A DNA stretch of 64,000 nt from Candidatus Micrarchaeota archaeon. GTDB lineage: Archaea > Micrarchaeota > Micrarchaeia > Anstonellales > Bilamarchaeaceae. The stretch is taken from the NCBI GenBank assembly GCA_043821365.1, contig JBDRCX010000006.1, positions 711,417-775,416 of the forward strand. The letters run 5' to 3'. The translations under genes were made by a program, and so were the position numbers. Under the pieces are notes generated by a model. That model did not search any database and was not told the DNA's origin. It saw only the letters and a list, made by a program, of their open reading frames with translations. How positions within the stretch are numbered: the first letter of the stretch is position 1; each line of letters begins with the position of its first letter. Shown here piece after piece: positions 1,255 to 19,190 of the stretch.

Positions 1255-1370
1255 GTATCGAATTAGTTTAAAAAGAAATAAAAAGAAATGTTAGTTTCAA
1301 ATAACGGCCAATACCGTAATAAATAACTATTCTCATATTTTTTCTTGTCACCATCTTTTTTGGTGATAAA

Positions 1371-1847: not shown

Positions 1848-1885
1848 TTTTTTTTATTTTAAAAATAGAAAATAAAAAGGAGATT

Positions 1886-1908
1886 AAAAAAGGACCTTGG
1901 TCCTTTTT
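1886..1908. terminator. Bidirectional hairpin aaaaaGGACCttGGTCCttttt between convergent genes
   Basis: Perfect palindrome flanked by A5 and T5 runs. It abuts the EF-1alpha stop codon (1907-1909). A near-identical element lies at 51611-51634. Confidence 0.5.
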
Positions 1909-3181
1909 ATGCTGCTGCTTTTGGTACAACGTCCAACACAACCCCAGCTGCGACTGTTTGACCCATATCTCTAAGGGCAAATCTGCCGAGTGGTGGGAAG
2001 TCGGAGAACTTCTCAATAACCATTGGTTTTAATGGTTGGATTCTAACAACTGCAACATCTCCAGTCTTAATAAAGTCTGGTTTTGCTTGGGCTGTTTGTC
2101 CTGTTTTCGGATCTTTCTTCTCCAAAATTTCTACAACCTTACCTGCAAATTGTGCTGTGTGAATGTGGAATACTGGCGTATAACCAATTGAAATTGCAGT
2201 TGGGTGGTTCAATACAACAATCTGTGCAGTAAATGTCTCTGCAACTTTTGGTGGATTTGAAGAAGGACCAATAACATCTCCTCTTTTAATGTCCTTTTTA
2301 TCAACACCCTTGAGGTTGAAACCAACATTATCTCCTGGCATTGCCTCAGTAAGCTCCTGGTGATGCATTTCGATTTTCTTAACTTCACCTTTAGCATTTG
2401 ATGGCATAACTACGATGCTGTCTCCTGGTTTCATCTTTCCAGTTTCAACTCTTCCTACTGGAACAGTACCGTGGCCAGTGATTGTAAAGACATCTTGAAT
2501 TGGAAGTCTCAATGGTTTGTCAACTGGTTTTGGAGGTATTTTGAATGTGTCTATAATCTCCAATAAAGTTGGACCGGTATACCATGGCATGTTTGCTGAT
2601 TTCTTTGTTAAGTTGTCACCAGCATATCCAGAACATGGAACAAACTTTACTTCTTCTAACTTGTATCCAATTCCTTTGAGTAGTTTTTCAACTTCTGCTT
2701 TTATCTTGTCGTATTCTTCTTGTTTGTAACCAACTGCATCCATCTTGTTCATGTTGACTGCAAATTGATTAATACCAAGAACTTTTGCAAGAAATGCGTG
2801 TTCTTTTGTCTGTGGTTGAACACCGTCCTTAACAGAAACTTGAAGTACTGCAGCATCTGCTTGGCTTGCACCTGTAATCATGTTTTTAACAAAATCACGG
2901 TGGCCAGGAGCATCGATAATTGTACAATAGTACTTTGGTGTTTCGAATTCCCTGTGAGAGATATCGATAGTAACTCCTCTTTCTCTTTCTTCTTTCAAAG
3001 CATCCATAACGAATGCAAATTCGAATGTTGCTTTACCAACCTTGGAAGCTTCCTCCTTGAGCCTGTTGAGCACCTGTTCTGAGATTGCTCCAGTTTCGTA
3101 GAGAATTCTACCAACTGATGTTGACTTACCTGAGTCAACGTGTCCTATAAACACTAAATTTAGGTGTTCTTTCTTTGCCAT
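1907..3181 (-). CDS. tuf: Translation elongation factor EF-1 alpha
   Basis: [21 protein letters not shown] (G1), DAPGHRDF (G3), NKMD (G4). The ORF track extends to 3223, but the ATG at 3181 has a GGAG motif 8 nt upstream and gives the canonical N-terminus. Confidence 0.95.
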
Positions 3182-3300
3182 AAATTCATCTCCTTTTATT
3201 TTTTTTCTTTTAATAATAGCCAACCTTTAATAGAAAAAGGTAAACGTGAATTTATTCCAAGATGTTTTTAAAGCTAACTATTATTCCCCTGTCGTTTTTT

Positions 3301-3783
3301 TTACACTTTTGCCAATATTACGGTGTAATTTTGTCCATAATGTTTAGCACAAGAAGGACACATCGTATAGAAAAAGTACATTTTACTCATCTTCTTTTTC
3401 TTTGATTTTGTGTATTCTTCCATTTCGCTTACCCACCTACCCATATTTTGATAGGACCCCTCAAAGACTTTAGTTAGAAATGTACCTGAGATTTTCTCCA
3501 TCTTGGCTCCAGGTATCTCTTTATTCACTGCAATGTAAATATCAGAACCAAATAATGAATTTTCATCTGAAAGCATAAGTTGTTCTCCAAGTGCATCAGC
3601 TGATTTTATTTTTTCTATATTTTTTACAATAACCTGACCAAAATTCAAAGGTATGTGGAAAAAACTCATCACATGGTCTTTAATAAATAATTTGTTCTTC
3701 CACTTAATTTCCTTTTCATTCCATGGTGTTGAGTTAAATCTGTTACAACAACCAGTTTCAGATTCTTCATATAATTTGTCCAT
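3301..3783 (-). CDS. Conserved hypothetical protein with N-terminal CC and C-terminal CPSC motifs
   Basis: 160-aa ORF: GCCNRFNSTPW ... FFHIPLNFG ... YTMCPSCAKHYGQNY. A TATA-like tttataaaaa lies about 25 nt upstream on the minus strand, suggesting a leaderless transcript. No function recognised. Confidence 0.6.
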   Translation of the reverse strand: MDKLYEESETGCCNRFNSTPWNEKEIKWKNKLFIKDHVMSFFHIPLNFGQVIVKNIEKIKSADALGEQLMLSDENSLFGSDIYIAVNKEIPGAKMEKISGTFLTKVFEGSYQNMGRWVSEMEEYTKSKKKKMSKMYFFYTMCPSCAKHYGQNYTVILAKV

Positions 3784-4092
3784 ACTTATCCCATCTAAAC
3801 TATTCGTTATATGGTTTTTTATAAATTAGTTTTCTTAACGATTAGAATTTCTAAAAAGAAGGGAGATGGTACACCAATAGGCTCCATCCCGCCTCCCACT
3901 CTTAATCTCCATTGTGGAGGAAAAGACTTTGTACTAAAAAAATTTATATAGCTGAATCTTTGTCTCTAAAAGTCAACATCACAAAATTTCTCTTTTTCCA
4001 ATCAAAACAAAAAGAACTTCTATACCCAGAGCTCTCCCTTTCGAGTGTACAAATAAAATTTCGTTTTTAAATCTTGTCATCGTGATACACAT

Positions 4093-5364
4093 ATGGTCAA
4101 GAATAAATCCTACCGTTTCAAGAAAAAAGATGATTCACTTCTTCCTTTGGCAGTTTCAAATCCAAAAAAAAATCCATACAGATTCAGAAAAAAAGATGAA
4201 AGCACTACAGTAGTAATTGCAGTGAGTTTATTGTTGATCCTAGTAATACTTTTTGGTGGTGCACTTCTATTTGTATTAAGTCAGAAAAGTGACCAACCAG
4301 TAATCATCCCATCTAATAATTCAACTTCTAATCTCACGAATACAACTAACACAACAATTGAATGTGGTGATGATTGCATTTACTTGAATGCAATTAATGG
4401 CAACAATTACTCAGCATGTCTACCTATAATGAATTCAACTATTACACAAATGTGTTTTGAATATTTTTCCAACGAATCACTTGATGCATGTAAACTTGTT
4501 ACTGATATGGAAAAGAAAAAAGTTTGTGTTACTAAGTTTGCTATGGAAGACGATAATGCATTGCTATGTGATCTCCTCTTAAGTGAAGGATATTTGGAAT
4601 GTAAAGTACAAGTAGATCCATGTTATGCAGAGTTAGACCAAAATCTTTGTCATGCAGTAAATGAAAACGATCCTTCAAAATGTAAGTCAAATGATGAATG
4701 TTTATTGAATTATAGTGTTACTAACTCAGATGTTGATGGATGCGAACTTATTTCAGACGAAGTTATATCACTTGCATGTCTTTCAACAACTTCTGATGAG
4801 GATTATTGCAAAACTCTAACAGAAGGTCCAAAAACAGAATACTGTTATCAGCTTTACAGTGTTTTTGAAGATGATTATTCTTATTGTAGTAAAATAACAA
4901 ATCTTGAAGGTCCATACGCTCTAGATTGTTATTCTAATTATGCAATTAGTGAGGAAGATCATATAATTTGTAATGTATTGACTTTAGATCAAAGGTGGAA
5001 ATGCTATACAAACTATTCACTTGCAACTGGTGATCTTGATGGTTGCGAGGATATTCATCTGCTTGCTGATACCAATCGTTTCAATTGTGTTTTTACATAT
5101 GCAAATAAGTATGGTAATCCATCTGCTTGTAATATTCTTGAAGATACAAGTTCCAAATCAGTTTGTTACCAAGGTCCAATAATTTATTCCCCACAGAATC
5201 TTGATTGGCAATACTGTGAAGATGTTTCAAACTCAGACTGGTCTAATAAATGTTTCAATGAGGCTGCAAAATTAAACCAAGATATCTCTATTTGCAATTA
5301 TATAGCTGTGGATTATGCAAAAGAAGCATGTAAAATAGCCTATGAAGTAAATAAAACAAAATAA
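4093..5364 (+). CDS. Membrane-anchored extracellular protein with ~12 tandem two-cysteine repeats
   Basis: Duplicated basic N-terminus (YRFKKKDDS / YRFRKKDES), one TM helix (VVIAVSLLLILVILFGGALLFVL), and an N-x-S/T-rich linker. This is followed by repeated ~25-aa units of the form D-x(1-3)-C-x(9-14)-C. Confidence 0.7.
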   Translation: MVKNKSYRFKKKDDSLLPLAVSNPKKNPYRFRKKDESTTVVIAVSLLLILVILFGGALLFVLSQKSDQPVIIPSNNSTSNLTNTTNTTIECGDDCIYLNAINGNNYSACLPIMNSTITQMCFEYFSNESLDACKLVTDMEKKKVCVTKFAMEDDNALLCDLLLSEGYLECKVQVDPCYAELDQNLCHAVNENDPSKCKSNDECLLNYSVTNSDVDGCELISDEVISLACLSTTSDEDYCKTLTEGPKTEYCYQLYSVFEDDYSYCSKITNLEGPYALDCYSNYAISEEDHIICNVLTLDQRWKCYTNYSLATGDLDGCEDIHLLADTNRFNCVFTYANKYGNPSACNILEDTSSKSVCYQGPIIYSPQNLDWQYCEDVSNSDWSNKCFNEAAKLNQDISICNYIAVDYAKEACKIAYEVNKTK

Positions 5365-5369
5365 AAAAA

Positions 5370-6017
5370 TTATTCTTTTGGTTGCTCTTCTTTAGGATCT
5401 TCTTCTACTGATATTTGTTCAAAGTAGTTTAGATCATAAGTGAATTCTTCGTATGATTTTATCTTACCCTGAGCCATCATCAATTCTCTTGAGAGAATGT
5501 AGAATATAAGTGCAAGAGATCGTTTTCCTTTGTTGTTTATTGGGATTATATGATCAATGAATTTTGTTTCATTATCAGTATCACACAATGCAATAACAGG
5601 AACACCATTTTTTGCACTTTCTATTAATGCCTCATGTTCACCTTTTGGATCACATACCATCACAATTTTTGGTTCCATGAATTTTTCTACATTCATGTTT
5701 GTCATTGTTCCAGGTACAAATCGTCCTTTGACTAGGTTGACTCCAGTGAGTTCAGCAAATTTACTTGCAGGGTTGCTAGAATAGACACGGGAAGCAACTA
5801 TGCACACTTCTTCTGGTTTGTATCTTGCTAATATTTTTGCTGCACTTACCAGTCTTTCTGCACTTTTTCTCAAATCAAGTATGTAGAGGCCATCGTCTCT
5901 TCTTTTGAAGATATAGTCTCTCATATCACTTGTTCTTATCTTGGTGCCAATGTGTACACCGGCTTCAAGAAAGATTTCCTGTTTTACAGGCATTCCAGTT
6001 TTATCTGTTGTTGTCAT
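5370..6017 (-). CDS. rps2: Ribosomal protein uS2
   Basis: LEAGVHIGTKIRT, YIFKRRDDGLYILDL, and VCDPKGEH...ALCDTD are typical of archaeal S2. Confidence 0.95.
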   Translation of the reverse strand: MTTTDKTGMPVKQEIFLEAGVHIGTKIRTSDMRDYIFKRRDDGLYILDLRKSAERLVSAAKILARYKPEEVCIVASRVYSSNPASKFAELTGVNLVKGRFVPGTMTNMNVEKFMEPKIVMVCDPKGEHEALIESAKNGVPVIALCDTDNETKFIDHIIPINNKGKRSLALIFYILSRELMMAQGKIKSYEEFTYDLNYFEQISVEEDPKEEQPKE

Positions 6018-6034
6018 ATTTTCATCCTCCTGTT

Positions 6035-6165
6035 GTCCTTTTTAGAAAAAGGACCAAAAATCTGGTTTTGTTAAGTTTTCCTCTTCGAGGAAAAATGATT
6101 TAACTAAAATCCATCGGATTTTTCATCAACCAGTTTTTTATGTCACTTTTTTCCAAAAAAGTGAC
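6035..6165. repeat. Cluster of four palindromic hairpins between the tRNA-Pro-like gene and rps2
   Basis: The hairpins are gtcctttttagaaaaaggac (6035-6054), ttttcctcttcgaggaaaa (~6076-6095), aaaatccatcggatttt (~6108-6124) and gtcacttttttccaaaaaagtgac (6142-6165). Confidence 0.6.
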
Positions 6166-6420
6166 TGGGGCCGCTGAGATATGCTCCTCCCAACCGCAGG
6201 AATTTGTAGTTGAGAAGTTTGAATTTCTTGCGCTTTTTGGTAAAAAGCGCCCAAAAACTTAACTTGCTAATTTTTGCTCGCAAAGCTCGCAAAAATAGTG
6301 TTGCCACCAAAAACCCGATAGGGTTTTTCAACAAAGAATTTTGGAGCGCCTTTTTTCAAAAGGCGCACTCAGATAACAAGCACCCCAAGCTTGCAGGATA
6401 CCAGGTTACCTCACGGCCCC
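6166..6420 (-). tRNA. tRNA-Pro(GGG)-like gene with a ~182-nt insertion in the T-loop; possibly a pseudogene
   Basis: Minus-strand read:
- Acceptor, D-arm and anticodon arm: GGGGCCG TG AGGT AACCTGGTA TCCT G CAAGC TTGGGGT GCTTG TTAT CTGAG.
- Then a ~182-nt hairpin-rich insert.
- Then CTCAG CGGCCCC A.
The acceptor, D-arm, anticodon arm and T-stem all pair. The residual T-loop would be TGCATAT, which lacks the universal U55 and A58. Confidence 0.5.
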
Positions 6421-6604
6421 AAAGAGGGGACGGTTTTGAACTTAAAGTTCAAATCAACTGCCCCTAAACTTCTAGACATTTGGTGTGGAAGGTTTTAATA
6501 TCTATTTTAAACTCGAATGCCAATCTATTTAAATGTTAAAATGTATATTTTATTCTAAGAAATTTGTTTTAAACACAAGTTTCTAACCCACATATGGGGG
6601 TATT

Positions 6605-7117
6605 TTGTTATCATTTAACAAAAATGGTGATATATTGAAAAATAAGATAGATACTTTGGATCTTTTAATACTCAGGGAGTTAAGAGCTAATTGTAAACGA
6701 CCAGTAAGGGAGTTAGCATTAAAACTTAGGATGCATCCAAACACACTTCTACAAAGAATTAAACGACTAGAGAAATCCAAAGTAATACGTAAATATCATG
6801 CTGATATTGATTTCAAATCATTAGGATATGATATGCATTCAGTGGTTATGATAAAAATAAGAAAAAGCGGGCTAGAAGACGCAAAACTTCTCCAAGAAGT
6901 TTCTGATTTACCTGAGGTTCAATCTTTATACGCAGTTACTGGCGGTGCGGATTGCATTGCCATAATTAAAGCAAAAAACAGAGATGATCTTGTACGTATT
7001 TTGAGAATTATACAAACACAACCTTCCGTATTAAGAACAACAAGTTACTTGGTTCTAATTACTTATAAAGAATCTGCAAGTTTCAATCCACTTACTTCTT
7101 TATCTGGAAGGAGTTAA
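6605..7117 (+). CDS. Lrp/AsnC family transcriptional regulator (paralog 1)
   Basis: HTH segment VRELALKLRMHPNTLLQRIKRLEKSKVIRKY followed by a RAM-like C-terminal domain. TTG start with GGGGGT 5 nt upstream. Confidence 0.85.
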   Translation: MLSFNKNGDILKNKIDTLDLLILRELRANCKRPVRELALKLRMHPNTLLQRIKRLEKSKVIRKYHADIDFKSLGYDMHSVVMIKIRKSGLEDAKLLQEVSDLPEVQSLYAVTGGADCIAIIKAKNRDDLVRILRIIQTQPSVLRTTSYLVLITYKESASFNPLTSLSGRS

Positions 7118-8649
7118 TTCTTTTTTCTGAAACCATACAGGTAGTAAGCATTTCCGTATGATGGAATTATACCTTGTCTCAAAGCACCTTCAAATATTAA
7201 GTTTGCTTGGTGTTGTTCTATTAAAGTATTTCTAAGGTCTCTTTTTGCTATTGGATTGGTGCTAGTTGATGGGGGTGCCCATTCATCTACAAATACTATT
7301 GCTCCCCCTGGTTTTAGTGATTCTATTGCATTTCGTACAAATGTTTCTCTTTCAGCTGGTTCCATATTATGCAGTACGCATGCAACTATCACAGTATCAT
7401 ATTTATTAGCCGGGTCAATCTGTATCCCGTCTGTTCTAGTATCAAAAATTTCCCCACCATTAATTTTTCTTACTGATTTCCATACTGCTGCTTCTCCATT
7501 TATTGGAGTGTAGCAGTCTACGAACACTTCATCAACCATCTTATATGTTGCAAGTATCTTTTCCAAGGCAAGTCTTCTTGCTATCTGGACTCTGGCTAAT
7601 CTTACTGGTGCTCTTGCAGCTTCAGTTTCAGTTGATGGTAGTTCCATTTGTCTTTGTTTAAGTTTGGCTGGGTCTTTTTCATATACCATCAAACTCATTG
7701 AGTGGTAAGCGTCAATTCTTAATTTGAATTCAGCCACAAATCTTGCTCCAGTGACATTCGACATTATCCTATCTCTTAAATCTGATTTGCTTTCAACTGG
7801 TCTGAAATTTTCATCAAACTGAACCTCTATTGCAGGATCAAGAGCATTTTGACCTCGTTTTCTCGAAAGTTTTGCTGGCCATTCATCTATTAATACAAAA
7901 TAACCATGTTCTTCTAATTTTTTGAAAATCTCTTGTATAACCCTTGTCTTAATTCGCCTATGATCACTTGGTGGATCTCCATACTCATTTTCACGAAGCA
8001 GCATAACTGGGTCTGCTATTAAATGTAATGTTTGTGATAAAATTGCCATGTGTATTTGCGCATCTAATCGCAGTTCTCTAAAATCTTGTTGAGTGTACTC
8101 AACATCAATACCAAGTTCAGCAAGCTTTCTTTTTGCTTCTGCTTGCATTCCTGTTGAAATATCATTTGCAATGATTCTTAGACGTGCTATAGCTTCTGGA
8201 TCAACTTCCCCCAATCCAGTTACTATACTCTCTATAACTGTTCCAGTACCACAACTCATTTCTAGTGTTCTACCAGTAAATATATTTGTTTTACTAGTAT
8301 CCATTCTTGATGCATGAACTGCAACTAATAGTTTGAGCAGACGTCTTATTGCTTCATCATGCTCTTTCATGTGGCCATCATAATTTTTTCCAGCCCACTC
8401 ATCGAACAAATCTGCCATACTTGTTTTTGAATAACTTCTTGCAACTTGTGCCATCCCGCTTTCAGCAACTAACTTGTCTATTGTTCTTCTTCTATCTTCA
8501 TGAAGTGCTCTAAGTTGTCCATCTAGTTCAGGGTTTGCTCCTCTCTTGTGCATAGGTGGGTCTACGTGTGCTGCGCGTAATGTACCGACACGGTGGCGTT
8601 TTGTCATTCCAACATCACGTCCACCCTTTGAAAGGTCTTGTATAGCCAT
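7114..8649 (-). CDS. Two-domain class I SAM-dependent methyltransferase (paralog of 12655-13635 plus a second MTase domain)
   Basis: Domain 1: FDEWAGKNYDGHM ... LEMSCGTGT ... SQTLHLIADP ... VLIDEW. Domain 2: DTVIVACVLHNM ... LKPGGAIVFVDEW. The ORF track starts at a TTG at 8682. The ATG at 8649 has GAGGGA upstream, but the start remains uncertain. Confidence 0.75.
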   Translation of the reverse strand: MAIQDLSKGGRDVGMTKRHRVGTLRAAHVDPPMHKRGANPELDGQLRALHEDRRRTIDKLVAESGMAQVARSYSKTSMADLFDEWAGKNYDGHMKEHDEAIRRLLKLLVAVHASRMDTSKTNIFTGRTLEMSCGTGTVIESIVTGLGEVDPEAIARLRIIANDISTGMQAEAKRKLAELGIDVEYTQQDFRELRLDAQIHMAILSQTLHLIADPVMLLRENEYGDPPSDHRRIKTRVIQEIFKKLEEHGYFVLIDEWPAKLSRKRGQNALDPAIEVQFDENFRPVESKSDLRDRIMSNVTGARFVAEFKLRIDAYHSMSLMVYEKDPAKLKQRQMELPSTETEAARAPVRLARVQIARRLALEKILATYKMVDEVFVDCYTPINGEAAVWKSVRKINGGEIFDTRTDGIQIDPANKYDTVIVACVLHNMEPAERETFVRNAIESLKPGGAIVFVDEWAPPSTSTNPIAKRDLRNTLIEQHQANLIFEGALRQGIIPSYGNAYYLYGFRKKN

Positions 8650-8768
8650 TTGTATTCCCTCAATTCGACCATCCCACCTCAACTTAATTAACAGTCTTTA
8701 CCCTAATCTATTATGCAAAGCAAATATTTAAAAGGTATTGTTTTAGTTTATGGCAATTAACGTAAGTT

Positions 8769-8963
8769 CTAAACACGTGGATAACGTAACACATTTTGCA
8801 CAATATCCACATGAGACATAAACATACGTCTACAACAATAACGATCAACACCAAGTTCATCCATTATCACATCTGGTTTTTTGTCATTTAAAGACATCTT
8901 ATATTGTTCATACAAGTGTCCAATGACAGAACCACACGTGAAACATCTTACTGGAAATTCCAT
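8769..8963 (-). CDS. rpoN: DNA-directed RNA polymerase subunit N (Rpb10 homolog)
   Basis: MEFPVRCFTCGSVIG ... RYCCRRM zinc motif, 64 aa. GAGGTGA Shine-Dalgarno upstream. Confidence 0.95.
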   Translation of the reverse strand: MEFPVRCFTCGSVIGHLYEQYKMSLNDKKPDVIMDELGVDRYCCRRMFMSHVDIVQNVLRYPRV

Positions 8964-8976
8964 TTTTATTCACCTC

Positions 8977-9090
8977 ATCGAAATTCCTATTTCGATTAAG
9001 TAAAAATGTACATGCATTTTTACACTGCGCTTTTTAGAAAAAAGCGCGCAAAAATTTTTTATTTATTTTGGGGTGTGGGGTCTCCCCCAC
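8977..9090. repeat. Four consecutive hairpins filling the rps9-rpoN spacer
   Basis: The hairpins are atcgaaattcctatttcgat (8977-8996), gtaaaaatg-tacatg-catttttac (9000-9023), gcgctttttagaaaaaagcgc + gcaaaaa (9027-9054) and gtggggtctcccccac (9075-9090). Confidence 0.6.
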
Positions 9091-9103
9091 AAACAAACCA
9101 AAA

Positions 9104-9829
9104 TCACCTGTATGATTTTTGGAACCTGGCCCTTGCCTTTGGTCCACGGAACTTCTTTGGTTCAACCCGTCTTGTATCATCAACTATTAATGAACGATCG
9201 ATTGTAATGAATTTTTCCTTAAGGTTCATCTCATCAAAGTATGCTACTAGTGCGTTTGCTATTGCTGTTCTTGCTGCTTGTGCTTGGCCCATCACTCCAC
9301 CGCCATTAACATTGACTGCAATGTCTATGTTATTTGCTTCTGGACCAACGTACTTTATTGGCTCTCTTATTATTTCTCTTATGTAAGAATTGTTAATTGA
9401 TTCAATGTTTCTGCTGTTCAATCGTATTACTCCTTTGCCTTTAGTTATTGTTGCACGTGCTACGCTCTCTTTTCTTTTTCCTCTTGTAACAAAAACTTTT
9501 GTTTCTATTTTTTTCGATGGTTTCTTTCTTTTCTTTTTTGGACTTGGTTTTTTCTCTTCTGTTTTGTGTTCGTGAGTTTCTTTTTTCTCTTCGTGTTTAT
9601 GTTCTACATGGGTGTGTGCCTTTTTCTCAGGTACTTCGTGTTTATGTTCTGTGTGTTTGTGCTCTTCTTTCTTTTCATGCTCCTCATGCTTTTTTTCATG
9701 AACATGTTTATGTTCTACATGAGTGTGCGCTTCCTTCTTTTCATGAGCTTCTTTTTTCTCATGTTTAGTGGTGTGAGTTCCTTCCTTCTTTGTTCTTTTC
9801 TTTTTTCCTTCTTTAGTCATGATCATCAA
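9104..9829 (-). CDS. rps9: Ribosomal protein uS9 with a ~105-aa His/Glu/Lys-rich N-terminal extension
   Basis: The C-terminal ~135 aa (GKRKESVARATI ... GGGVMGQAQAARTAIANAL ... DDTRRVEPKKFRGPKARARFQKSYR) is canonical S9. The N-terminus is HEKK/EHKH repeats. The start overlaps the rpl13 stop. Confidence 0.9.
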   Translation of the reverse strand: MMIMTKEGKKKRTKKEGTHTTKHEKKEAHEKKEAHTHVEHKHVHEKKHEEHEKKEEHKHTEHKHEVPEKKAHTHVEHKHEEKKETHEHKTEEKKPSPKKKRKKPSKKIETKVFVTRGKRKESVARATITKGKGVIRLNSRNIESINNSYIREIIREPIKYVGPEANNIDIAVNVNGGGVMGQAQAARTAIANALVAYFDEMNLKEKFITIDRSLIVDDTRRVEPKKFRGPKARARFQKSYR

Positions 9830-10251
9830 CCCGAATAACCTATACTTTTACAGATCTCGTAGATAGTAACATGCTTGGAAATGCCATCATAGTCTGCATT
9901 TTCTATTTTCATGTTTACTTCCATGTTCTTTGGATTACCAGTATGAACTCTTAGTCTTCCCAAAGCAATCTTTCCTCTGCTACTTTTCATTGGTAGCATT
10001 CCTCTTATCATTCGTTTAACAAATAAGTGTGGAATTTTTGGCCAAGTCGGAGACTTCTCAGGTGTACCTTTGTGCTTAAGACCTCTTTTTGTCAAATATC
10101 TTTGTGTTATTTCTTTTGGATTTCCATTTATCACTATTTTCTCAGCATTTATTAAATGGATTTCATCTCCGTTTATGAGTTTCTTTGCAATCTGACTTGC
10201 AAGCCTTCCAAAAATCATATTCTCTCCATTAATGACATTCATGAATATCAC
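9826..10251 (-). CDS. rpl13: Ribosomal protein uL13
   Basis: GRLASQIAKKL ... VINAEKIVI.G ... MLP...RG motif pattern. Located inside the L18e-L13-S9-RpoN operon. Confidence 0.9.
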   Translation of the reverse strand: MIFMNVINGENMIFGRLASQIAKKLINGDEIHLINAEKIVINGNPKEITQRYLTKRGLKHKGTPEKSPTWPKIPHLFVKRMIRGMLPMKSSRGKIALGRLRVHTGNPKNMEVNMKIENADYDGISKHVTIYEICKSIGYSG

Positions 10252-10604
10252 TTTAGTATGACAACTCCCTTTCCATCGGGGTTAGTCTTTTTTAGGCTTT
10301 CAATTGTAATCGCCTGTCCGCCAGCCATGCTGATCAACTGTCTTGCACTTTCGCTAAAAGCAAATGCTGCCACAGTGATCTTTTTTGAAACATTTCCAGA
10401 ACCAAGTACTTTTCCTGGAACAAGAATTGTTTCATCTCCTTCTGCATACGCATCAATCTTACTTAGATTTACCTCTATCTTCTTTCGCCTTGGTTTTGAA
10501 AGCTCATAAGCTACCTTTTTCCAAAGCGGTTTGTCAGTTTTCATCAGATCTACAATCAAAGATTTAAGGATCTGATTATCTTTTTGTCTTTTCATATTCG
10601 CCAC
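10248..10604 (-). CDS. rpl18e: Ribosomal protein eL18 (L18e)
   Basis: PLWKKVAYELSKPRRKKIEVNLSKI ... ILVPGKVLG. Conserved operon position. Confidence 0.9.
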   Translation of the reverse strand: MANMKRQKDNQILKSLIVDLMKTDKPLWKKVAYELSKPRRKKIEVNLSKIDAYAEGDETILVPGKVLGSGNVSKKITVAAFAFSESARQLISMAGGQAITIESLKKTNPDGKGVVILK

Positions 10605-10738
10605 CTACGGCTCGCCCCTGTTTTAGAGCAGGGACTCTACCTTGAATAAGCGTTATTATAACGTTAGGGAACATTTAAAATGCTAATGATAACTCGTTTA
10701 TGTCCTAATTATATAAAAAAGAAAATAAAATAAAGAAA

Positions 10739-11125
10739 TTATGCTGGTCTTGCCAGGTCATATATTTGTTTCAATGCAACCACGAACGCTGCCGGAGCAA
10801 CGAATACGCTAAGTGCACTTAGGAACTGATATACAAAGACTCCTAAAGGACCCGTCATACCGCCAGTTACCTCGCTCATCTTAGCCACAACTTCGTTAAT
10901 AGAATTCATTACCATCAGGAGGGCTATGGTCGCGACGAGGAATTGCATAATTTCTTTGTCCGATATGTTCATAAGGCCTACAATAATACCCAACAAACCC
11001 AATACTGCAAGTACCAATGGCAATGCAGTTCCAAGCATGTTTGAGGCTAGACCTATCACAATGGCAATAACAAATCCACCAAGGAATGCATATTGGCCAT
11101 AGTTAACTGTTGTTGATTTTCCCAT
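10739..11125 (-). CDS. Small integral membrane protein, function unknown
   Basis: 128 aa with 3-4 hydrophobic helices. GGTGA SD upstream. Confidence 0.6.
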   Translation of the reverse strand: MGKSTTVNYGQYAFLGGFVIAIVIGLASNMLGTALPLVLAVLGLLGIIVGLMNISDKEIMQFLVATIALLMVMNSINEVVAKMSEVTGGMTGPLGVFVYQFLSALSVFVAPAAFVVALKQIYDLARPA

Positions 11126-11207
11126 TTTACTATCACCTCGATTGACCAGTAAAACGATAACTAGATTTTAAAATCCTCCGATTGCCCTTCGTCAATTGTA
11201 CTGGTTT

Positions 11208-12050
11208 TTATAGTAAAATTGCTAGAAATAGACCAGACATTCCCAACAAAAACGACACCAAGCTTGCATCTCTTGCAAATTTTAGTTTGTTGTTTATTGC
11301 TTTGTAACAAATCAACAGTATGATAATATCGGCTATAACGATGAGTGTACCTGGTATAATGCTCATCGTCAGCCCAACTAAAAACGGTGCCGCGCTTAGG
11401 GGTATAAATAAAATATATAATATTGCTGCAATCAACAATGCAGGTTGTTTTCCAATCACTATGGGGAGTGTTTTTGATTTTCTTGCTTTTCTATCTCCTT
11501 CCATATCCTGTATTGATTTTATTATTTCCCTTGCTAGACCAGCTACAAAACCTAATAGTGCCAGAATAATTGCAAGAAGAGATAAAGAATTTGAAACCAC
11601 AAAATTTCCAAAGATAAATGGTATTGCCATTGTTAATGCGATGTAAACATTTCCAAGTAATGGCAAGTCTTTCAATTTCCAATTATATAATATGGCAAAA
11701 AGATTGAATAGAATGACAATCGCAAATACTATATAGTTAATATAATATGCAAATACCACTGATGCTATTAGCGAGAGTATCGAGAAATACAATGCAAATT
11801 CCTTTGTTATTGTACCATCAACTAAAGGCCTGTTCTTTGCTTTGTTTAATCTATCTGTTTCAATATCAAAATAGTCATTCAATGCAAAAGAACCCATCTC
11901 ACTGAAGATTGGAACCAATAAAGATAGGATTATTATAGGGGATACTAGGGGTAAGGAACCAAGAACAATGGTTTCTGCTATCAAAACTGCAAAAGCAAGC
12001 ATTATTGCATGCTCGAATCTTGTGAGTTTTATGAATTCCTTTAGGAACAT
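11208..12050 (-). CDS. UbiA-family prenyltransferase, likely digeranylgeranylglyceryl phosphate synthase
   Basis: Polytopic membrane protein with NDYFDIETDRLNKAKNRPL and a second D-rich motif, IQDMEGDRKA. Confidence 0.8.
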   Translation of the reverse strand: MFLKEFIKLTRFEHAIMLAFAVLIAETIVLGSLPLVSPIIILSLLVPIFSEMGSFALNDYFDIETDRLNKAKNRPLVDGTITKEFALYFSILSLIASVVFAYYINYIVFAIVILFNLFAILYNWKLKDLPLLGNVYIALTMAIPFIFGNFVVSNSLSLLAIILALLGFVAGLAREIIKSIQDMEGDRKARKSKTLPIVIGKQPALLIAAILYILFIPLSAAPFLVGLTMSIIPGTLIVIADIIILLICYKAINNKLKFARDASLVSFLLGMSGLFLAILL

Positions 12051-12181
12051 AATCTTACCTTGTTGTTTTAGTTTAAAACATTATCCACTTTCAAATCAAT
12101 CACATCTTTTGATTCAGTTAATTGTTGGTTCACACACTTTTTTATAATTATTTCTGTGTAATATCATTCCAGGGGGATTTT

Positions 12182-12658
12182 ATGAAAGAGATTATAGACG
12201 AAATCGATAAGAAAATTTTGGCTGTTTTGATTGACAATTCAAAAACACAGTTGAAAAAACTGTCAAAAACTTTGAGAATACACCCAAATACTCTGTTACA
12301 ACGCATCAAAAAATTGGAGCATGAAAATATTTTGATGAAATATTCTGCAGTTGTTAATTTTACAAAAATTGATAGAAGAATGCAAGCTTTGATGTTTTTA
12401 GATGTTGATATGACAAAAGGCTGGGAGGAAGCAATTAGGCCATTGGCTAAATTACCAGAGGTTGTTTCTTTTTTACTAATCACTGGGGATCATGATGTTT
12501 TGATAATTGCAAGAGTTAAGGATGAATATCATTTGGGGGATTTGATGAGAAGATTTCAGGCAACTAAAGTTGTGAAAAAAACAACAACTCATTTGATTGT
12601 AGATACTTATAGGGAACCATACGAGTATAATCCTTTGAGGGATGAATTGAGGTTTTAA
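12182..12658 (+). CDS. Lrp/AsnC family transcriptional regulator (paralog 2)
   Basis: LKKLSKTLRIHPNTLLQRIKKLEHENILMKY. The ATG at 12182 is preceded by AGGGGGA. The ORF track start at 12122 is probably too long. Confidence 0.85.
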   Translation: MKEIIDEIDKKILAVLIDNSKTQLKKLSKTLRIHPNTLLQRIKKLEHENILMKYSAVVNFTKIDRRMQALMFLDVDMTKGWEEAIRPLAKLPEVVSFLLITGDHDVLIIARVKDEYHLGDLMRRFQATKVVKKTTTHLIVDTYREPYEYNPLRDELRF

Positions 12659-13635
12659 TTTTTCACAAATAAATGCAATCTCATGGAATGGAATTCATCA
12701 ATTGGAGCTACTGCTCTTTCTTCTAGTTTTGTGAAACCATTTGTTATAAAGTGACCTATTAACTCTCCCGGGTGTTTTAGGGGTCTAACTATTGCATCAA
12801 GAAATAATGCTATGTCTAATGGTAAAACTGGAGAAATCCTAAATGGATCTTCTTCAATCACAACTGCAATTCCACCAGTAACCAAAGCATCTTTAATAGC
12901 CCTAACCATTCTGGGTTTATCATCATTACTAATCAAATGAAACGTTTGTGAACAAACAACTGTTCTAAATCCTCCAATAGAAAAATCATAAGCACTCATG
13001 TTTGTGTGTCTAATATCTATTCCTAATTTCTCCCGTGCTTTTTCAAGCATCTTTGGTGAAACCTCATTAATATGAACAGGTTGAATTTCCTGTTCTGGTG
13101 CTAACAATGCATGGTCAATACCAGCAGCTCTCATAATTCTACTTCGTTCTAAAATCTCTTGAACATATCTCATTGGTTCTCCAGTTCCTGCTGTCAAATC
13201 AACTATTGGAGTTCTAAGAAAAGGGGCAGCATATTGCAAAACAGTTCTTATTGCCTGGTAATGTCTTGTTTCTATTCCCATGTGCTGATCATACCTATCT
13301 GAAAACTGATCATAAAGCATTGCAAAAAATCTTACTCTCTGTGCAAGATTAAAACTATCATAAATTTGTTTTATTGCAGCCTGCGCTTTTTCGATCACAA
13401 TATCTCTTTTTCTTTTTTCAACTGCAAATTCATTTACTAATCTGAATAAGTTTGGGACACTTACTGTTCTTGGGTCAGCTGCTAATAATTCTAAAATTGG
13501 TCGAGGTAATCTTTCCTGTTGTCTTTGTACTCGTCTCCCACCCATCACTACTACTGTTGTTATGGAAGGTTTAAAATGGTTATAATTAACATGACTATCT
13601 AAAAATCTAATCATCGATTTATATCCATGGACCAA
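12655..13635 (-). CDS. Class I SAM-dependent methyltransferase (paralog of domain 1 of 7114-8649)
   Basis: LYDQFSDRYDQHM ... VDLTAGTGE ... SQTFHLISND ... AVVIEEDP ... IDEFHSMRLHLF. The start is uncertain: TTG at 13635, or an internal ATG at 13614. Confidence 0.75.
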   Translation of the reverse strand: MVHGYKSMIRFLDSHVNYNHFKPSITTVVVMGGRRVQRQQERLPRPILELLAADPRTVSVPNLFRLVNEFAVEKRKRDIVIEKAQAAIKQIYDSFNLAQRVRFFAMLYDQFSDRYDQHMGIETRHYQAIRTVLQYAAPFLRTPIVDLTAGTGEPMRYVQEILERSRIMRAAGIDHALLAPEQEIQPVHINEVSPKMLEKAREKLGIDIRHTNMSAYDFSIGGFRTVVCSQTFHLISNDDKPRMVRAIKDALVTGGIAVVIEEDPFRISPVLPLDIALFLDAIVRPLKHPGELIGHFITNGFTKLEERAVAPIDEFHSMRLHLFVKN

Positions 13636-14574
13636 TACAAAGTTGAAATAATTTCAAGAGAAGAAAAAAATCAATTAATGGAAAAACATGTTTCAAAAAA
13701 TCTCCACGAAAGAAAAGCAATTATTCATGGAACATGTGTGAAATTCTTTACTGATAATCATGAGTTCAAAGACATGTGGGAAGATAATTTTGATCTAATG
13801 CCTGATTGGATAAGACCACACGCAAGGCTATTTGCAATTTCTGGTCCAAAGCTAAAAGTATTATACGAACCATTTTCAAAAACAGTTATCATTGAAGGTT
13901 GCAACTACTATGGCTGGGTAAAAAGTATTGCATTAGCACTAGTAGCAGATTTTATGGAAGATTTTACCTCTGAACATCGAAGATATTCAGTCCATGGTTC
14001 TTTTGTTGATGTTGGTGGGAGAGGTTTAGCCATAATCGGTCCTTCTGGAAGTGGAAAAACAACCTTAACATATGGTCTTCTTCTAGATAAAAAATCAAAC
14101 TTTGTTACTGATGATTGGTTTTTTGTTAGGCTAGCACAAAATGAAACATCGGTATATTCATCTGAAAAGAATTCCTATATTCGTGGAGATCTTGAAAACA
14201 GCTGGCCAGAATACAAAAATAAACTCAAAGGAATAAAGAAAGACAAACAGGATCGTGCAATTGTTGATGTAAAACAATTAATTGGCGGAGATCGAATAAA
14301 ACAAGAATCAATTCTTTCACTGACTATTCTTTTAACAAGAGACAAAAAGTTGCCAGTTGAAACAAAACTAGACAAATATGAGGCACTTGAATTTATGATG
14401 GATAATGACTTTTGCAATCCGCATCAATTAATTAGAAACGAAGAAAAATCAAAACAAAGAATAAGCTTTTTCCGTGAATTATTTAGCCGTACTCCTGTTT
14501 ATTTACTAAACACAATAGAAACACCAGAACAAAGTTTAACAAGACTTAAAACACTTATAAAAAAAGAGGTCTAA
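13627..14574 (+). CDS. HPr-kinase-like (HprK C-terminal fold) P-loop protein with an unknown N-terminal domain
   Basis: HGSFVDVGGRGLAIIGPSGSGKTTLTYGLLL..SNFVTDDW matches the HprK/PEPCK-like Walker-A core. The first ~125 aa are unrecognised. Confidence 0.65.
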   Translation: MDQYKVEIISREEKNQLMEKHVSKNLHERKAIIHGTCVKFFTDNHEFKDMWEDNFDLMPDWIRPHARLFAISGPKLKVLYEPFSKTVIIEGCNYYGWVKSIALALVADFMEDFTSEHRRYSVHGSFVDVGGRGLAIIGPSGSGKTTLTYGLLLDKKSNFVTDDWFFVRLAQNETSVYSSEKNSYIRGDLENSWPEYKNKLKGIKKDKQDRAIVDVKQLIGGDRIKQESILSLTILLTRDKKLPVETKLDKYEALEFMMDNDFCNPHQLIRNEEKSKQRISFFRELFSRTPVYLLNTIETPEQSLTRLKTLIKKEV

Positions 14575-14575
14575 T

Positions 14576-15412
14576 ATGAAAATCGCATTAATCCAAATGA
14601 GTATGACGGACAACCAAGACGAAAACCTTTCAAAAGCATTACAATTTATCAAAGAAGCATCAGAAAAAGGTGCAAAAATTATTTGTCTCCCCGAACTTTT
14701 CACATCAACTTATTTTCCACAAGAAGAAAATGTAAATACAGAAAAATTTACTGAATCAATTCCAGGGAAGAGTCATGATCTACTTTCAAAAGCAGCAAAA
14801 GATAATCAAGTTGTCATAATAGGCGGTTCAATATTTGAGAAAGCAGACAAACTTTACAACACTTCAATGGTTTTCGATGAAAATGGAAAACTTCTTGGAA
14901 ATTATAGAAAAATACACATCCCATATGATGAAAAATTCTATGAAAAAAATTATTTTGAAAAAGGAGATCTTGGTTACAAAGTTTTTGAGACAAAATATGG
15001 CAGAATAGCTGTTCTAATCTGCTATGATCAATGGTTTCCAGAGGCAGCAAGAATTGTTTCCTTAATGGGGGCGGATATGATATTCTATCCAACTGCAATT
15101 GGTATTTGTGATTCAATCAAACAAACAGAAGGAAATTGGCAAGAAGCTTGGGAAGGTGTCCAAAGAGGGCATGCAATTGCAAACGGGGTTGTAGTTGCAG
15201 GGGTTAACAGAGTTGGAAAAGAAGGCGAAACTAATTTTTGGGGAGGTTCCTTTGTATATTCTCAGTTTGGTACATTGATTACCAAAGCAGATGATACTGA
15301 AGGAGTTGTCATTGCAGAAATAAACACAGAACTTGGAAAAGAGGTCAAAGAAGGATGGGGGCTTTTCCATAATAGAAGACCAGAAACTTATCAAAAAATA
15401 ACCGAGAAATGA
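14576..15412 (+). CDS. aguB: N-carbamoylputrescine amidase (carbon-nitrogen hydrolase)
   Basis: Nitrilase-superfamily layout (CLPELF ... YRKIHIP ... ICYDQWFPE) with a Glu-Lys-Cys triad. Adjacent to agmatine deiminase. Confidence 0.85.
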   Translation: MKIALIQMSMTDNQDENLSKALQFIKEASEKGAKIICLPELFTSTYFPQEENVNTEKFTESIPGKSHDLLSKAAKDNQVVIIGGSIFEKADKLYNTSMVFDENGKLLGNYRKIHIPYDEKFYEKNYFEKGDLGYKVFETKYGRIAVLICYDQWFPEAARIVSLMGADMIFYPTAIGICDSIKQTEGNWQEAWEGVQRGHAIANGVVVAGVNRVGKEGETNFWGGSFVYSQFGTLITKADDTEGVVIAEINTELGKEVKEGWGLFHNRRPETYQKITEK

Positions 15413-15431
15413 TTATAATCATTCTTTACAA

Positions 15432-16457
15432 ATGAGATTTATGGATAAATACCGAATGCCTGCGGAATGGGAACAACATGAAGCAACCTGGCTATCCTGG
15501 CCAAAAGATCCTGAGACATTCCCCGATCAAATCTTGCCTAAAGTTGAGAAAATCTACATTGAAATGATAAAAGCACTTCATGAAAAAGAAAAAGTGCATG
15601 TTCTTGTTAATGATGAAAAAACTCAAATAAAAGTTCAAAAACTATTAGATGAAGCAGGAGTTAAAAATAATGTTATTATCCATAAAATCAAAACAGTTGA
15701 CGTGTGGATGCGTGATTATGGCCCTATTTTCGTAAAAAACAATAGCAAAATAAAAATGACAAAATGGATTTTCAATGCATGGGGTGGAAAATACGAACAA
15801 CTTATGCATGATAATTCTGTTGTTGATCAAATGATTCCTCTACTTGGAGATATTGAAGTTACCAAACCAGGAATCATTTTAGAGGGTGGTTCAATTGAAG
15901 TAAATGGTAATGGAACTTTACTAACAACAGAACAATGTTTACTCAATCAGAATAGAAATAAACACCTAAACAAAGAACAAATTGAAGATTATCTTAAACA
16001 ACATCTTGGGGTTTCACATATAATTTGGTTGAAAGAAGGAATAGCTGGTGATGATACTGATGGTCATATAGATGACATTGCAAGGTTTGTTGGACCAAAC
16101 ACAATTCTATGTGCAACTGAACAAACAAAATCAGATGACAACCACCAGATCCTGAATCATAATTTAGAAACACTGAAAAATGCAAAAAATGAAAAAGGCG
16201 AACCGTTCGAAGTTAAAGAACTTCCTATGCCAGGCCGGGTTGATTCACCATACGGAAGATTACCTGCAAGTTATGCTAATTTCTACATAGGAAATGGTGT
16301 GGTCTTACTCCCAACCTTTAATCATAAAAATGATCAAAAGGCAATCTCAATTCTTGAGGAAAATTTTCCTAATCGTAAAGTTGTTCCAATCTATTGCGAA
16401 CCATTGGTGTGGGGACTAGGCGCAATCCATTGCGTTACGCAGCAGCAGCCCATTTAA
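15432..16457 (+). CDS. aguA: Agmatine deiminase
   Basis: RMPAEWEQHEATWLSWP, VWMRDYGP, GGSIEVNG, TDGHIDD, and a C-terminal GAIHCVTQQQP catalytic Cys motif. Confidence 0.9.
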   Translation: MRFMDKYRMPAEWEQHEATWLSWPKDPETFPDQILPKVEKIYIEMIKALHEKEKVHVLVNDEKTQIKVQKLLDEAGVKNNVIIHKIKTVDVWMRDYGPIFVKNNSKIKMTKWIFNAWGGKYEQLMHDNSVVDQMIPLLGDIEVTKPGIILEGGSIEVNGNGTLLTTEQCLLNQNRNKHLNKEQIEDYLKQHLGVSHIIWLKEGIAGDDTDGHIDDIARFVGPNTILCATEQTKSDDNHQILNHNLETLKNAKNEKGEPFEVKELPMPGRVDSPYGRLPASYANFYIGNGVVLLPTFNHKNDQKAISILEENFPNRKVVPIYCEPLVWGLGAIHCVTQQQPI

Positions 16458-16489
16458 ATATTAGTGTTGTTAGTGTCACAGGTGAAAGA

Positions 16490-16768
16490 ATGGTAGCGAA
16501 AAAAACAAAAAAAGTAGAGAAAATTGAAGAATGTTGCTGCGAAGATCCATCTTGTTTAAATACAGTAGAACGTCCACCTATGAGTGGTATGTGTTATGCT
16601 ATAGGGGGCATTCTTGCAATGTTTGCCGGGGTAGTCTTTCTCCTTGGAGCTTTCGGGAGTGTTGATACTATGACAGTTTACATAGCTGCAGGTATTCTTC
16701 TTGTATTCCATGGATTGGGGGGAGTTCTTCACGTTATTCGCGGATGTCCAATGTGCAAACCTAAATAA
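16490..16768 (+). CDS. Small two-TM protein with Cys clusters at both ends
   Basis: The ATG at 16490 is preceded by AGGTGA. Contains CCCEDPSC ... two hydrophobic helices ... RGCPMCKPK. The ORF track start at 16394 overlaps aguA and is unlikely. Confidence 0.55.
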   Translation: MVAKKTKKVEKIEECCCEDPSCLNTVERPPMSGMCYAIGGILAMFAGVVFLLGAFGSVDTMTVYIAAGILLVFHGLGGVLHVIRGCPMCKPK

Positions 16769-16773
16769 TTTTT

Positions 16774-17547
16774 TTATTTCTTATGCATTTTGAAATAATC
16801 TTCAACATGCATTTGTAATTCTTTATTTGTTTCAAAGCCAAATTTTTGGTGTAACTGAAGCAGGTATGGGTGTGGAGAAAAATGAGGGACTGTTATTGCA
16901 TATCCTTCCATATCCATTGATGCTGACTTTGCATCTGCTCCAATATATTTATCATAAACATTTCTGAATCTAGAAGAAGTTGCCGCTTGTTCTCTTGAGA
17001 CTATCTTACCTTCGATCTTTTGGTTTAGAAAAGCAAATGCAATTTGTTTTTTCTCAGGTTTTCCTGTGATAAGATTAAGCAATGGTTTTTCGATCCGAAC
17101 AACTATCTTTATCTCACCATCGTTTATAGTCATATCATACTCATTTTTTTCAAGATGCAGTAGTAAGAATGATGTAAAAAATTCCTTTGAATCATGGAAA
17201 CTTGTTGCTTTGGAAAGTAGGACCAGTCGTTCTCCATGGAAAAAAATCGAACGCATGGCTCCGTGTGCAAATGAGTTCCCCAATCTTTCTTCACCAATAC
17301 TGACATTTTGGAAATAATTATTTGGTACTGCATATGCTGCTCTTGTTTCAAACATAGGGGAAATAAATTTCACCGGCCAGGTCATTGAGGAATAAAGACT
17401 TCTCGATAATGAAGAAAAACTCTGCGCCATTATCTTTGAATATTCCATCCTTTCTTTGTCTTCTCTATGCATCTTCTCTATGAATTCCACATATTCTGGT
17501 ATATTCTTGGCAGTTTCACAAAATTGGCACATAACTAAAAAAATCAA
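16774..17547 (-). CDS. Hypothetical protein
   Basis: 257-aa ORF with no recognised motif. Divergent from 17603-18673. Confidence 0.5.
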   Translation of the reverse strand: MIFLVMCQFCETAKNIPEYVEFIEKMHREDKERMEYSKIMAQSFSSLSRSLYSSMTWPVKFISPMFETRAAYAVPNNYFQNVSIGEERLGNSFAHGAMRSIFFHGERLVLLSKATSFHDSKEFFTSFLLLHLEKNEYDMTINDGEIKIVVRIEKPLLNLITGKPEKKQIAFAFLNQKIEGKIVSREQAATSSRFRNVYDKYIGADAKSASMDMEGYAITVPHFSPHPYLLQLHQKFGFETNKELQMHVEDYFKMHKK

Positions 17548-17602
17548 GCTTGGTTTTTAAGTTTATTTATTCTATTATCAATACTTTTTAAGGGTTTTAA
17601 AC

Positions 17603-19178: not shown

Positions 19179-19190
19179 CAAATACCACCT

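Follow-up and report, generated by a model that had tools for sequence, protein, structure and literature searches.

The 64,000-nucleotide stretch of DNA analysed here (the window; Candidatus Micrarchaeota archaeon, GenBank assembly GCA_043821365.1, contig JBDRCX010000006.1, positions 711,417 to 775,416) is part of a Ca. Bilamarchaeaceae genome (G000; 1.2 Mb, six contigs) and carries, within 7 kb, two convergent gene pairs, each made up of an Lrp/AsnC regulator gene (Lrp1, Lrp2) and a gene for an S-adenosylmethionine (SAM)-dependent methyltransferase (MT; MT-long, MT-short). The pairs are best explained as two ancient paralogous copies (L and S) of a lineage-specific two-gene cassette of the Ca. 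Bilamarchaeaceae, that is, a class I SAM-MT gene placed tail-to-tail with a dedicated Lrp/AsnC regulator gene of one subfamily. A functional unit belonging to no described system had been proposed from the letters of the window alone, and this is now well supported: the pair is conserved and co-duplicated, its MTs fall into no characterised family, and no paper describing an Lrp–MT pairing was found in a literature search. In the whole reading, to which a probability of about one half is given, each Lrp would bind DNA, control its own gene and sense a small ligand (probably an amino acid or an amino-acid derivative), and would tune the expression of the neighbouring MT, which would methylate a related amino-acid-type substrate.

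Conservation and duplication of the pair

The phylum was surveyed in 401 sampled genomes, the window's GTDB family accounting for 75 of them and its genus for 27. Each of the two MT profiles matched about 30 of the 401 genomes (27–28 of the 75 in the family, chiefly in the genus, 20 of 27). Lrp1 orthologues of at least 73% identity were found in exactly those 19 same-genus genomes that have an MT adjacent to rpoN. On three public contigs (L011–L013) the gene order of the two modules and the block between them recurred: an HprK-like gene, divergent from MT-short; MT-short, convergent with its Lrp, 0–2 inserted genes lying between them; UbiA; the 128-aa membrane protein; L18e, L13, S9 and RpoN; and MT-long, convergent with its Lrp, followed by S2. 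About 20 further loci were alike, the housekeeping block between the modules included. The nearest named relative, Ca. Bilamarchaeum dharawalense (67% identity for MT-short, 85% for Lrp1), is classed in Micrarchaeota, family Ca. Bilamarchaeaceae (PMC8561730).

The neighbourhood survey that had been proposed in the sequence-only reading placed the pairing outside this genome too: it is conserved across one GTDB family of Micrarchaeota, in at least six contexts (rpoN/S2, HprK/UbiA, UbiA-TM128, PurP/ACT, Cdc6 and others). Linkage was also sampled at 15 loci picked by Lrp match alone, to avoid a choice based on the MT; a convergent, class-I-MT-like neighbour was present at 11–12 of these, at −14 to +84 nt, and was often so diverged that the hidden Markov model of the family barely detected it. 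These Lrp-picked cassettes lay among PurP, ACT-domain, UppS or Cdc6 genes, not ribosomal genes. With these sites included, the neighbourhoods in which the pair has survived number at least six.

Two further types were recognised in addition to L and S: type T, a third convergent pair located in some genomes between the S module and UbiA, and type D, a pair found in another genus after UbiA-TM128; orientation was convergent in all cassettes of the four types. The MT tree was resolved into clades S, L, T and D, and the clades of the Lrp tree corresponded exactly to those of the partner MTs, all MT-linked Lrps being set apart from the other Lrps of these genomes. Partner labels required 3 changes on the Lrp tree (the minimum) vs 12–19 in 300 shuffles, a contrast that is inflated by kinship. 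From the agreement of the Lrp clades with those of the partner MTs it follows that the two genes were duplicated jointly; by the evidence of trees and gene order the cassette is shown to have been copied several times (types L, S, T, D and a tandem MT-MT-Lrp form) and carried to different sites. Since the cassette persists, is duplicated whole and changes its site, its two genes very likely serve one process.

One well-supported clade, O, consists of ten MT-long paralogues, is nested within clade L and stands without Lrp. In L024, L033, L035 and L038 its members lie on the opposite strand, beside or between the S7 and EF-2 genes of the S12-S7-EF-2 cluster; MsrB adjoins the clade O MT in L024 and L026, and the clade O loci L026, L028, L030, L031 and L034 have other, differing neighbours. 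Two observations were made on individual loci. Two different rpoN-MT-Lrp loci (L012 and L041, contigs C36 and C8) occur in one bin, G247, probably from mixed strains in that bin. In L027 (G157) one TGA and split reading frames disrupt the chromosomal copy of MT-short, and an intact copy lies on a short contig.

The regulators, the methyltransferases and a third paralogue

The open reading frames (ORFs) of both convergent pairs, as they had been described, were present, and Pfam domains were found in all four proteins. Lrp1 and Lrp2 have an N-terminal AsnC-type helix-turn-helix (HTH) domain (PF13404; E 2e-9 and 1.9e-8, both over the gathering score) and a C-terminal RAM domain (PF01037, AsnC_trans_reg; 48.5 and 42.4 bits vs a cut-off of 25); all NCBIfam equivalog scores were far under cut-off. 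The two regulators are related, as had been seen from the stretch HPNTLLQRIK+LE in both (36% identity, E 5e-30). In a signature scan the helix HPNT[LM][LM]QR[IL]K+LE was found in every MT-linked Lrp and not in other Lrps; 2 of the 14 Lrp-like matches in this genome have it, namely the two window Lrps beside MTs. In the Ca. Bilamarchaeaceae, nearly all Lrps with HPNTLLQRIK+LE are accompanied by a convergent MT of the family described below. The start of Lrp1, placed earlier at 6605, is most likely TTG 6635 (MKNKID...), to judge from all orthologues and the database gene call; 6605–6621 is a palindrome. The orthologues (73–85% identical) begin with MKNKID behind a GGTGAT Shine-Dalgarno (SD) sequence.

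Archaeal Lrp/AsnC (feast/famine) regulators such as LysM, BarR, LrpA1 and Ss-LrpB control neighbouring metabolic genes. The window Lrps resemble these in size (~160 aa), in the combination of AsnC-type HTH and RAM ligand domain, in the adjoining enzyme gene and in the AT-rich palindromic boxes (putative operators) of their own promoters. They differ in forming a separate HPNTLLQRIK+LE subfamily restricted to one Micrarchaeota family, and in having as partner an MT in convergent orientation.

Homologues of MT-short were aligned as set A1 and those of MT-long as set A2. Both MTs match Methyltransf_25/11/12 of Pfam, and their paralogy, noticed before, was confirmed (MT-short vs the N-terminal two thirds of MT-long: 24% identity over 290 aa, E 4e-9; profile against profile, hhalign: 99.9%, E 5e-35, 259 columns). 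The MT motifs listed in the sequence-only reading were invariant in A1 and A2, as were the SAM-binding motif I, (D/E)xxxGTG, and the acidic end of beta2, N(D/E)xS; the marks of the family are YDxHM, TGH..AI, (D/E)xxxGTG, N(D/E)xSxxM, SQTxHLI, (E/D)E(D/W)P and IDxxHxM. The MTs are also Arg-rich, as had been remarked (R/(R+K) 0.61 and 0.67 vs a genome median of 0.32; ranks 73 and 39 of 1154), and the GC content of their genes is normal. MT-short starts at ATG 13545 (MGGRR...), not at 13635.

In the AlphaFold models MT-short (pLDDT 88.5) has a basic MGGRR tail, a lid of three helices and one class I SAM-MT domain; MT-long (pLDDT 88.7) has a disordered basic N-tail, a helical lid and a seven-strand domain at residues ~77–330. 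The seven-strand Rossmann fold (beta1–beta7) is present in both models, which were matched by more than 1000 class I MTs of the PDB at E<1e-3; SAM binding and methyl transfer are predicted for both proteins. The complete SAM-MT domain of MT-long is encoded at ~7660–8421 and a C-terminal half-domain repeat at ~7117–7617. A complete second MTase domain, claimed earlier for this protein, did not materialise: residues 351–511 form five strands, without GxG and without beta1–beta3, and this C-lobe aligns to the beta4–beta7 half of the protein's own N-domain (hhalign 98.5%, E 2.6e-15) and has neither motif I nor the beta2 acidic residue.

The origin of this architecture is suggested by the rpoN site of L060 and L061 (G287, G109), where two tandem MTs of ~330 aa are followed by Lrp and no MT-long is present. 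The two tandem MTs were considered as split N- and C-halves of MT-long; this was rejected, both being full-length family members. The tandem arrangement is possibly the pre-fusion state of the two-lobed protein. As tandem full-length MT-MT-Lrp occurs in several related lineages, MT-long is best read as a fused tandem pair, which would have arisen by fusion and decay of the second SAM-binding half and would now form a built-in pseudo-dimer.

With Methyltransf_11/12/25/31 (UbiE/COQ5-like) proteins the window MTs have in common the Rossmann fold, the GTG of motif I, the acidic/Asn-acid end of beta2 and a helical N-terminal lid; from the characterised class I MTs they are distinguished by the family motifs and by an insert of 30–50 aa after beta1. 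The nearest folds by Foldseek/PDB were NmbA (9ri2), PE N-methyltransferase (8ys9), phosphoethanolamine N-methyltransferases, CmoA (4gek), MM_2633 (3dtn) and Fur6 (8har), that is, small-molecule N-, O- and C-methyltransferases, with TM 0.3–0.5 and 10–20% identity. The structural check that had been proposed for the substrate class thus returned the class I fold and no substrate class, because the Foldseek/PDB matches are generic class I MTs. Di-domain phosphoethanolamine N-methyltransferases (PMT) of nematodes and plants are like MT-long in joining a catalytic domain to a second MT-derived domain, and Haemonchus contortus PMT1 (4krg) was the sole match to span both lobes (TMq 0.38 over 550 columns, identity ~12%); the PMT type has two complete domains, whereas the second lobe of MT-long is a beta4–beta7 half from its own N-domain, and the comparison with 4krg gave no evidence for phosphobase substrates.

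That the MTs stand outside characterised families was seen in Pfam/NCBIfam, PDB, Foldseek and profile searches. A sequence search of PDB chains returned nothing for MT-short and only E ~0.01 for MT-long; neither window MT matched PF01209 (UbiE/COQ5) at E<=0.01; in NCBIfam only far sub-threshold matches were obtained (CpaM, RquA, BioC, CmoA), the UbiE score being 17 bits vs a cut-off of 378. Among 1.84 billion cluster representatives the MT-short profile matched 376 proteins at E<1e-3 and 38 at E<1e-30, the more distant ones being generic bacterial class I MTs; in a collection of 5.8 billion proteins all named homologues of the MTs were labelled Micrarchaeota. By these searches the family is small, fast-evolving and uncharacterised, within the class I SAM-dependent MTs.

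A third member of the family was found elsewhere in the genome (G000:C2:103081-104148, 355 aa), fused to an archaeal ThrRS editing domain (ED-MT; PF08915, 54.5 bits); its MT part has the family motifs and matches A1 (hhalign 97.8%, E 1e-12). The gene lies 89 nt upstream of thrS and is divergent from an operon of a class IV aminotransferase and a tandem-Lrp gene. In L074, L075 and L077 the ED-MT fusion again stands beside a tandem-Lrp gene, divergently, and in L076 a 520-aa MT, matching the MT part only, is flanked by two co-directional tandem-Lrp genes. At five loci (L054, L056, L065, L072, L073) an ACT-domain gene is divergent from the cassette Lrp. Both the fusion and the genes around it suggest chemistry of an amino-acid or aminoacyl-tRNA type, and by their ACT, aminotransferase and ThrRS-editing-domain neighbours the Lrps may respond to an amino acid or other small molecule. 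The company of Lrp-type regulators is thus not tied, in this MT family, to one architecture or one orientation, and this speaks for a link through regulation or a ligand rather than for a mechanism by 3' overlap. As to the surroundings of these genes, the domain fused in ED-MT resembles a copy of the adjoining ThrRS N-terminus (C2:101166–106651), and at the five ACT loci, which belong to other genera, the ACT-domain protein is small and the cassette Lrp is flanked by one or two PurP (DUF1246/DUF1297) genes.

Regulation and competing explanations

Putative promoter elements of the window are given in Table 1. The leaders of Lrp-L genes (the clade of Lrp1) have a conserved TATA region, then TTGTTAT-N3-ATAACAA or TTGTNACAA boxes, then the SD; the palindrome TTGTTA-N5-TAACAA of the window is the single perfect copy in the 1.2-Mb genome, and relaxed matches were found at chance level. 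Genes of Lrp-S (the clade of Lrp2) have TGTGG-N4-CCACA just upstream of TATA, in the spacer common with UbiA; four perfect copies were found in 394 kb of fetched loci, all at Lrp-S promoters, and the window copy (TGTTGGTTCACACA) has 2 mismatches. An upstream element of MT-long (~26 nt) is kept in 19 of 21 orthologous rpoN–MT spacers, and its sole occurrence in this genome is the one at this putative promoter; the MT-short TATA lies within the 81-bp spacer common with the divergent HprK-like gene. By these elements the Lrps look autoregulated, and their control of the MT genes is favoured by context. Two candidate features were dropped: a likeness by eye (AAYTGWAACAA) between Lrp-L box 1 and a repeat of MT-long near its B recognition element, because the motif is AT-rich and box 1 is conserved in part of the clade only, and an RNA hairpin from the inverted repeat of the Lrp-L leader, because complementarity fails across orthologues.

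The reading of the cassette as an amino-acid-type sensor that tunes a neighbouring MT has several observations to contend with. No operator common to an Lrp promoter and that of its partner MT was found; TTGTTA-N5-TAACAA stands at Lrp1 alone, and the element upstream of MT-long differs from it in sequence. Paralogues sharing one cell have identical recognition helices, which speaks against regulons that are kept apart and insulated. Measured by branch lengths, the partner MT evolves about four times faster than Lrp-L (identity 25–45% vs 73–85%); a pace as slow as that of Lrp-L is unusual for a purely local regulator. Signature-clade Lrps without MT exist (L059, L062, L064, L066 and extra Lrps in L012, L015 and L023), and so do MTs without Lrp (the ten clade O members; L039 and L042). 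The generic fold matches name no substrate class, and the compared genomes are mostly kin, so that locus counts are counts of non-independent events.

Part of this evidence would fit a protein partnership, in which the MT methylates its cognate Lrp as a switch, or the RAM domain of the Lrp is the ligand-sensing subunit of an MT complex, adjacency serving co-assembly. In its favour, no common Lrp operator was found at the MT promoters, and MT and Lrp clades are one-to-one and were duplicated together; Lrp paralogues have diverged outside the DNA-reading helix but not within it, and the half-domain of the MT-long pseudo-dimer could be a docking surface. Such a partnership is nevertheless unlikely: either partner can be lost and the other kept, the evolutionary rates differ about 4-fold, and we know of no precedent for a dedicated Lrp methyltransferase. 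A still more speculative proposal is that the MT–Lrp pairs are orthogonal sensor-effector circuits, in which the MT would covalently modify its cognate Lrp, or the amino-acid- or aminoacyl-tRNA-derived ligand of the latter, and so reset the regulator; if true, transcription factors of a host-dependent DPANN archaeon would be subject to an adaptation loop that works by methylation and is tied to its translation apparatus.

A frozen accident without coupling, that is, segmental duplication of two neighbouring genes followed by low rearrangement in small genomes, is rather improbable. In its favour, the genomes that supply most of the evidence are kin within one family, genes overlap and are tightly packed throughout the genome, Lrps and MTs also occur apart, and the MT-short/Lrp2 pair tolerates inserts of 0.4–1.7 kb. 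An accident would have to account, however, for the survival of the pair in at least six neighbourhoods and at least three rounds of duplication, for a third MT type that is again Lrp-linked in another architecture and orientation, and for the fact that, of the 14 Lrp-like matches in the genome, only the signature Lrps adjoin MTs.

About equally improbable is that the MTs modify the translation apparatus (rRNA, tRNA, aminoacyl-tRNA, a ribosomal protein or EF-2), the Lrp being a mere neighbour or a global regulator of the ribosomal region. MT-long follows rpoN inside the L18e-L13-S9-RpoN...S2 cluster, the Lrp-less clade O lies between S7 and EF-2, the third paralogue carries a ThrRS editing domain beside thrS, the N-tails of the MTs are basic, disordered and Arg-rich, and the conservation of Lrp-L equals that of ribosomal proteins. 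Housekeeping RNA methyltransferases, however, show neither the very rapid evolution nor the variable copy number of the MTs; most of the phylum sample lacks the MTs, their best fold matches are small-molecule N-, O- and C-methyltransferases, and the cassettes of other genera adjoin PurP, ACT or Cdc6 genes.

The 3' overlap itself, with mutual antisense or termination interference making the expression of Lrp and MT mutually exclusive, is very unlikely to be the mechanism. Of the earlier description, the convergence of both pairs on a 4-nt TTAA palindrome stood; the overlap turned out to be neither special nor conserved. TTAA is a double stop in both pairs, so each transcript must end inside the partner gene; a T-run, from Lys-rich C-terminal codons of the MT, comes right after the Lrp stop, and all cassettes of the four types are convergent. 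Against this, an exact 4-nt overlap was counted in 37 of 216 convergent pairs of this genome (17%) and any overlap in 85 of 216, on a crude gene set; the 3' gap ranged from −35 to +151 nt in orthologous cassettes, MT-short/Lrp pairs were often interrupted by inserts of 0.4–1.7 kb, and the third MT type is Lrp-linked in divergent orientation. Since 3' overlap is common genome-wide and is not kept in orthologues, the antisense/termination coupling suggested earlier found no specific support; the TTAA stop overlap is best explained as a by-product of genome compaction, not as a mechanism.

A unit for defence or akin to restriction-modification, in which an HTH protein would control a DNA methyltransferase, and to which fast evolution, copy-number variation, PADLOC matches to mad2 (MADS methyltransferase; E 2.7e-14 for MT-long, 4e-9 for MT-short) and a weak mad3 match of the HprK-like neighbour might point, was rejected because the mad2 match is generic, unrelated bacterial class I MTs matching it equally well or better; moreover, MAD2 is an N6-adenine DNA MT within an eight-gene system (bioRxiv 10.1101/2023.03.30.534895), the (D/N/S)PP(Y/F) and PCQ/ENV motifs are absent from A1 and A2, and the cassettes occupy housekeeping sites and have no nuclease partner.

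The cassette is of interest in several respects. Few lineage-specific genes of the tiny DPANN/Micrarchaeota genomes have a functional handle, and the cassette is a tractable entry: both of its proteins are small and soluble, operators are predicted, and a third paralogue hints at amino-acid or aminoacyl-tRNA chemistry; it could reveal what such symbionts sense and modify. It also shows cleanly, in nature, how a regulator diversifies in step with an enzyme, and MT-long would illustrate the fusion of a tandem enzyme pair and its decay to a pseudo-dimer. Should the MTs be ordinary small-molecule enzymes under local Lrp control, the cassette would be a new and unsurprising member of the regulator-plus-enzyme class.

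Coordinates and neighbouring genes

Table 1. Features of the two cassettes and their surroundings (positions are those of the window).
Feature	Position	Strand	Description and basis
Putative TATA box of the Lrp1 promoter	6525..6535	+	CTATTTAAATG, preceded by conserved CCAAC; ~20 orthologous upstream regions
Putative Lrp1 auto-operator	6605..6621	.	palindrome TTGTTATCATTTAACAA (TTGTTA-N5-TAACAA), between TATA box and SD/start
Lrp1 (clade Lrp-L)	6635..7117	+	160 aa; ORF open from 6605; recognition helix HPNTLLQRIKRLE; Pfam, orthologues
TTAA, double stop common to Lrp1 and MT-long	7114..7117	.	sequence reading
MT-long (clade L)	7114..8649 (open to 8682)	-	511 aa; Pfam, alignment A2, AlphaFold, hhalign
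Predicted MT-long promoter	8725..8763	-	upstream element ACGTTAATTGCCATAAACTAAAACAA (8763-8738), then TATA TTTTAAATA (8733-8725)
Housekeeping block between the modules	8769..12050	-	rpoN, S9, L13, L18e, 128-aa membrane protein, UbiA-family prenyltransferase
Putative Lrp2 promoter region	12123..12148	+	degenerate palindrome TGTTGGTTCACACA, then TATA TTTTTTATAAT; UbiA/Lrp2 divergent spacer
Lrp2 (clade Lrp-S)	12182..12658	+	158 aa; recognition helix HPNTLLQRIKKLE; Pfam, Lrp tree, signature scan
TTAA, double stop common to Lrp2 and MT-short	12655..12658	.	sequence reading
MT-short (clade S)	12655..13545 (open to 13635)	-	296 aa; Pfam, alignment A1, AlphaFold
Putative MT-short TATA	13568..13579	-	CCATTTTAAACC; ~25-30 nt upstream of ATG 13545; kept in closest orthologues
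HprK-like P-loop protein, first gene of aguB/aguA operon	13627..14574	+	Pfam/NCBIfam, synteny

The HprK-like gene is a conserved divergent neighbour of MT-short and is counted here as a neighbour of the module. Together with aguB/aguA (agmatine to putrescine) it forms the operon at 13627–16457; in L012 it is an arginase-family gene that takes the neighbouring position. Rfam and ARAGORN searches over positions 1–20000 of the window gave no match. At 6035–6470, the spacer of 590 bp that separates rps2 from Lrp1 has a high GC content and is filled with hairpins, and orthologous loci have a spacer of ~0.4–0.9 kb here. The S9 protein of the housekeeping block (9104–9829) has an N-terminal extension of ~100 aa rich in His, Lys and Glu; its orthologues range from 147 to 269 aa.

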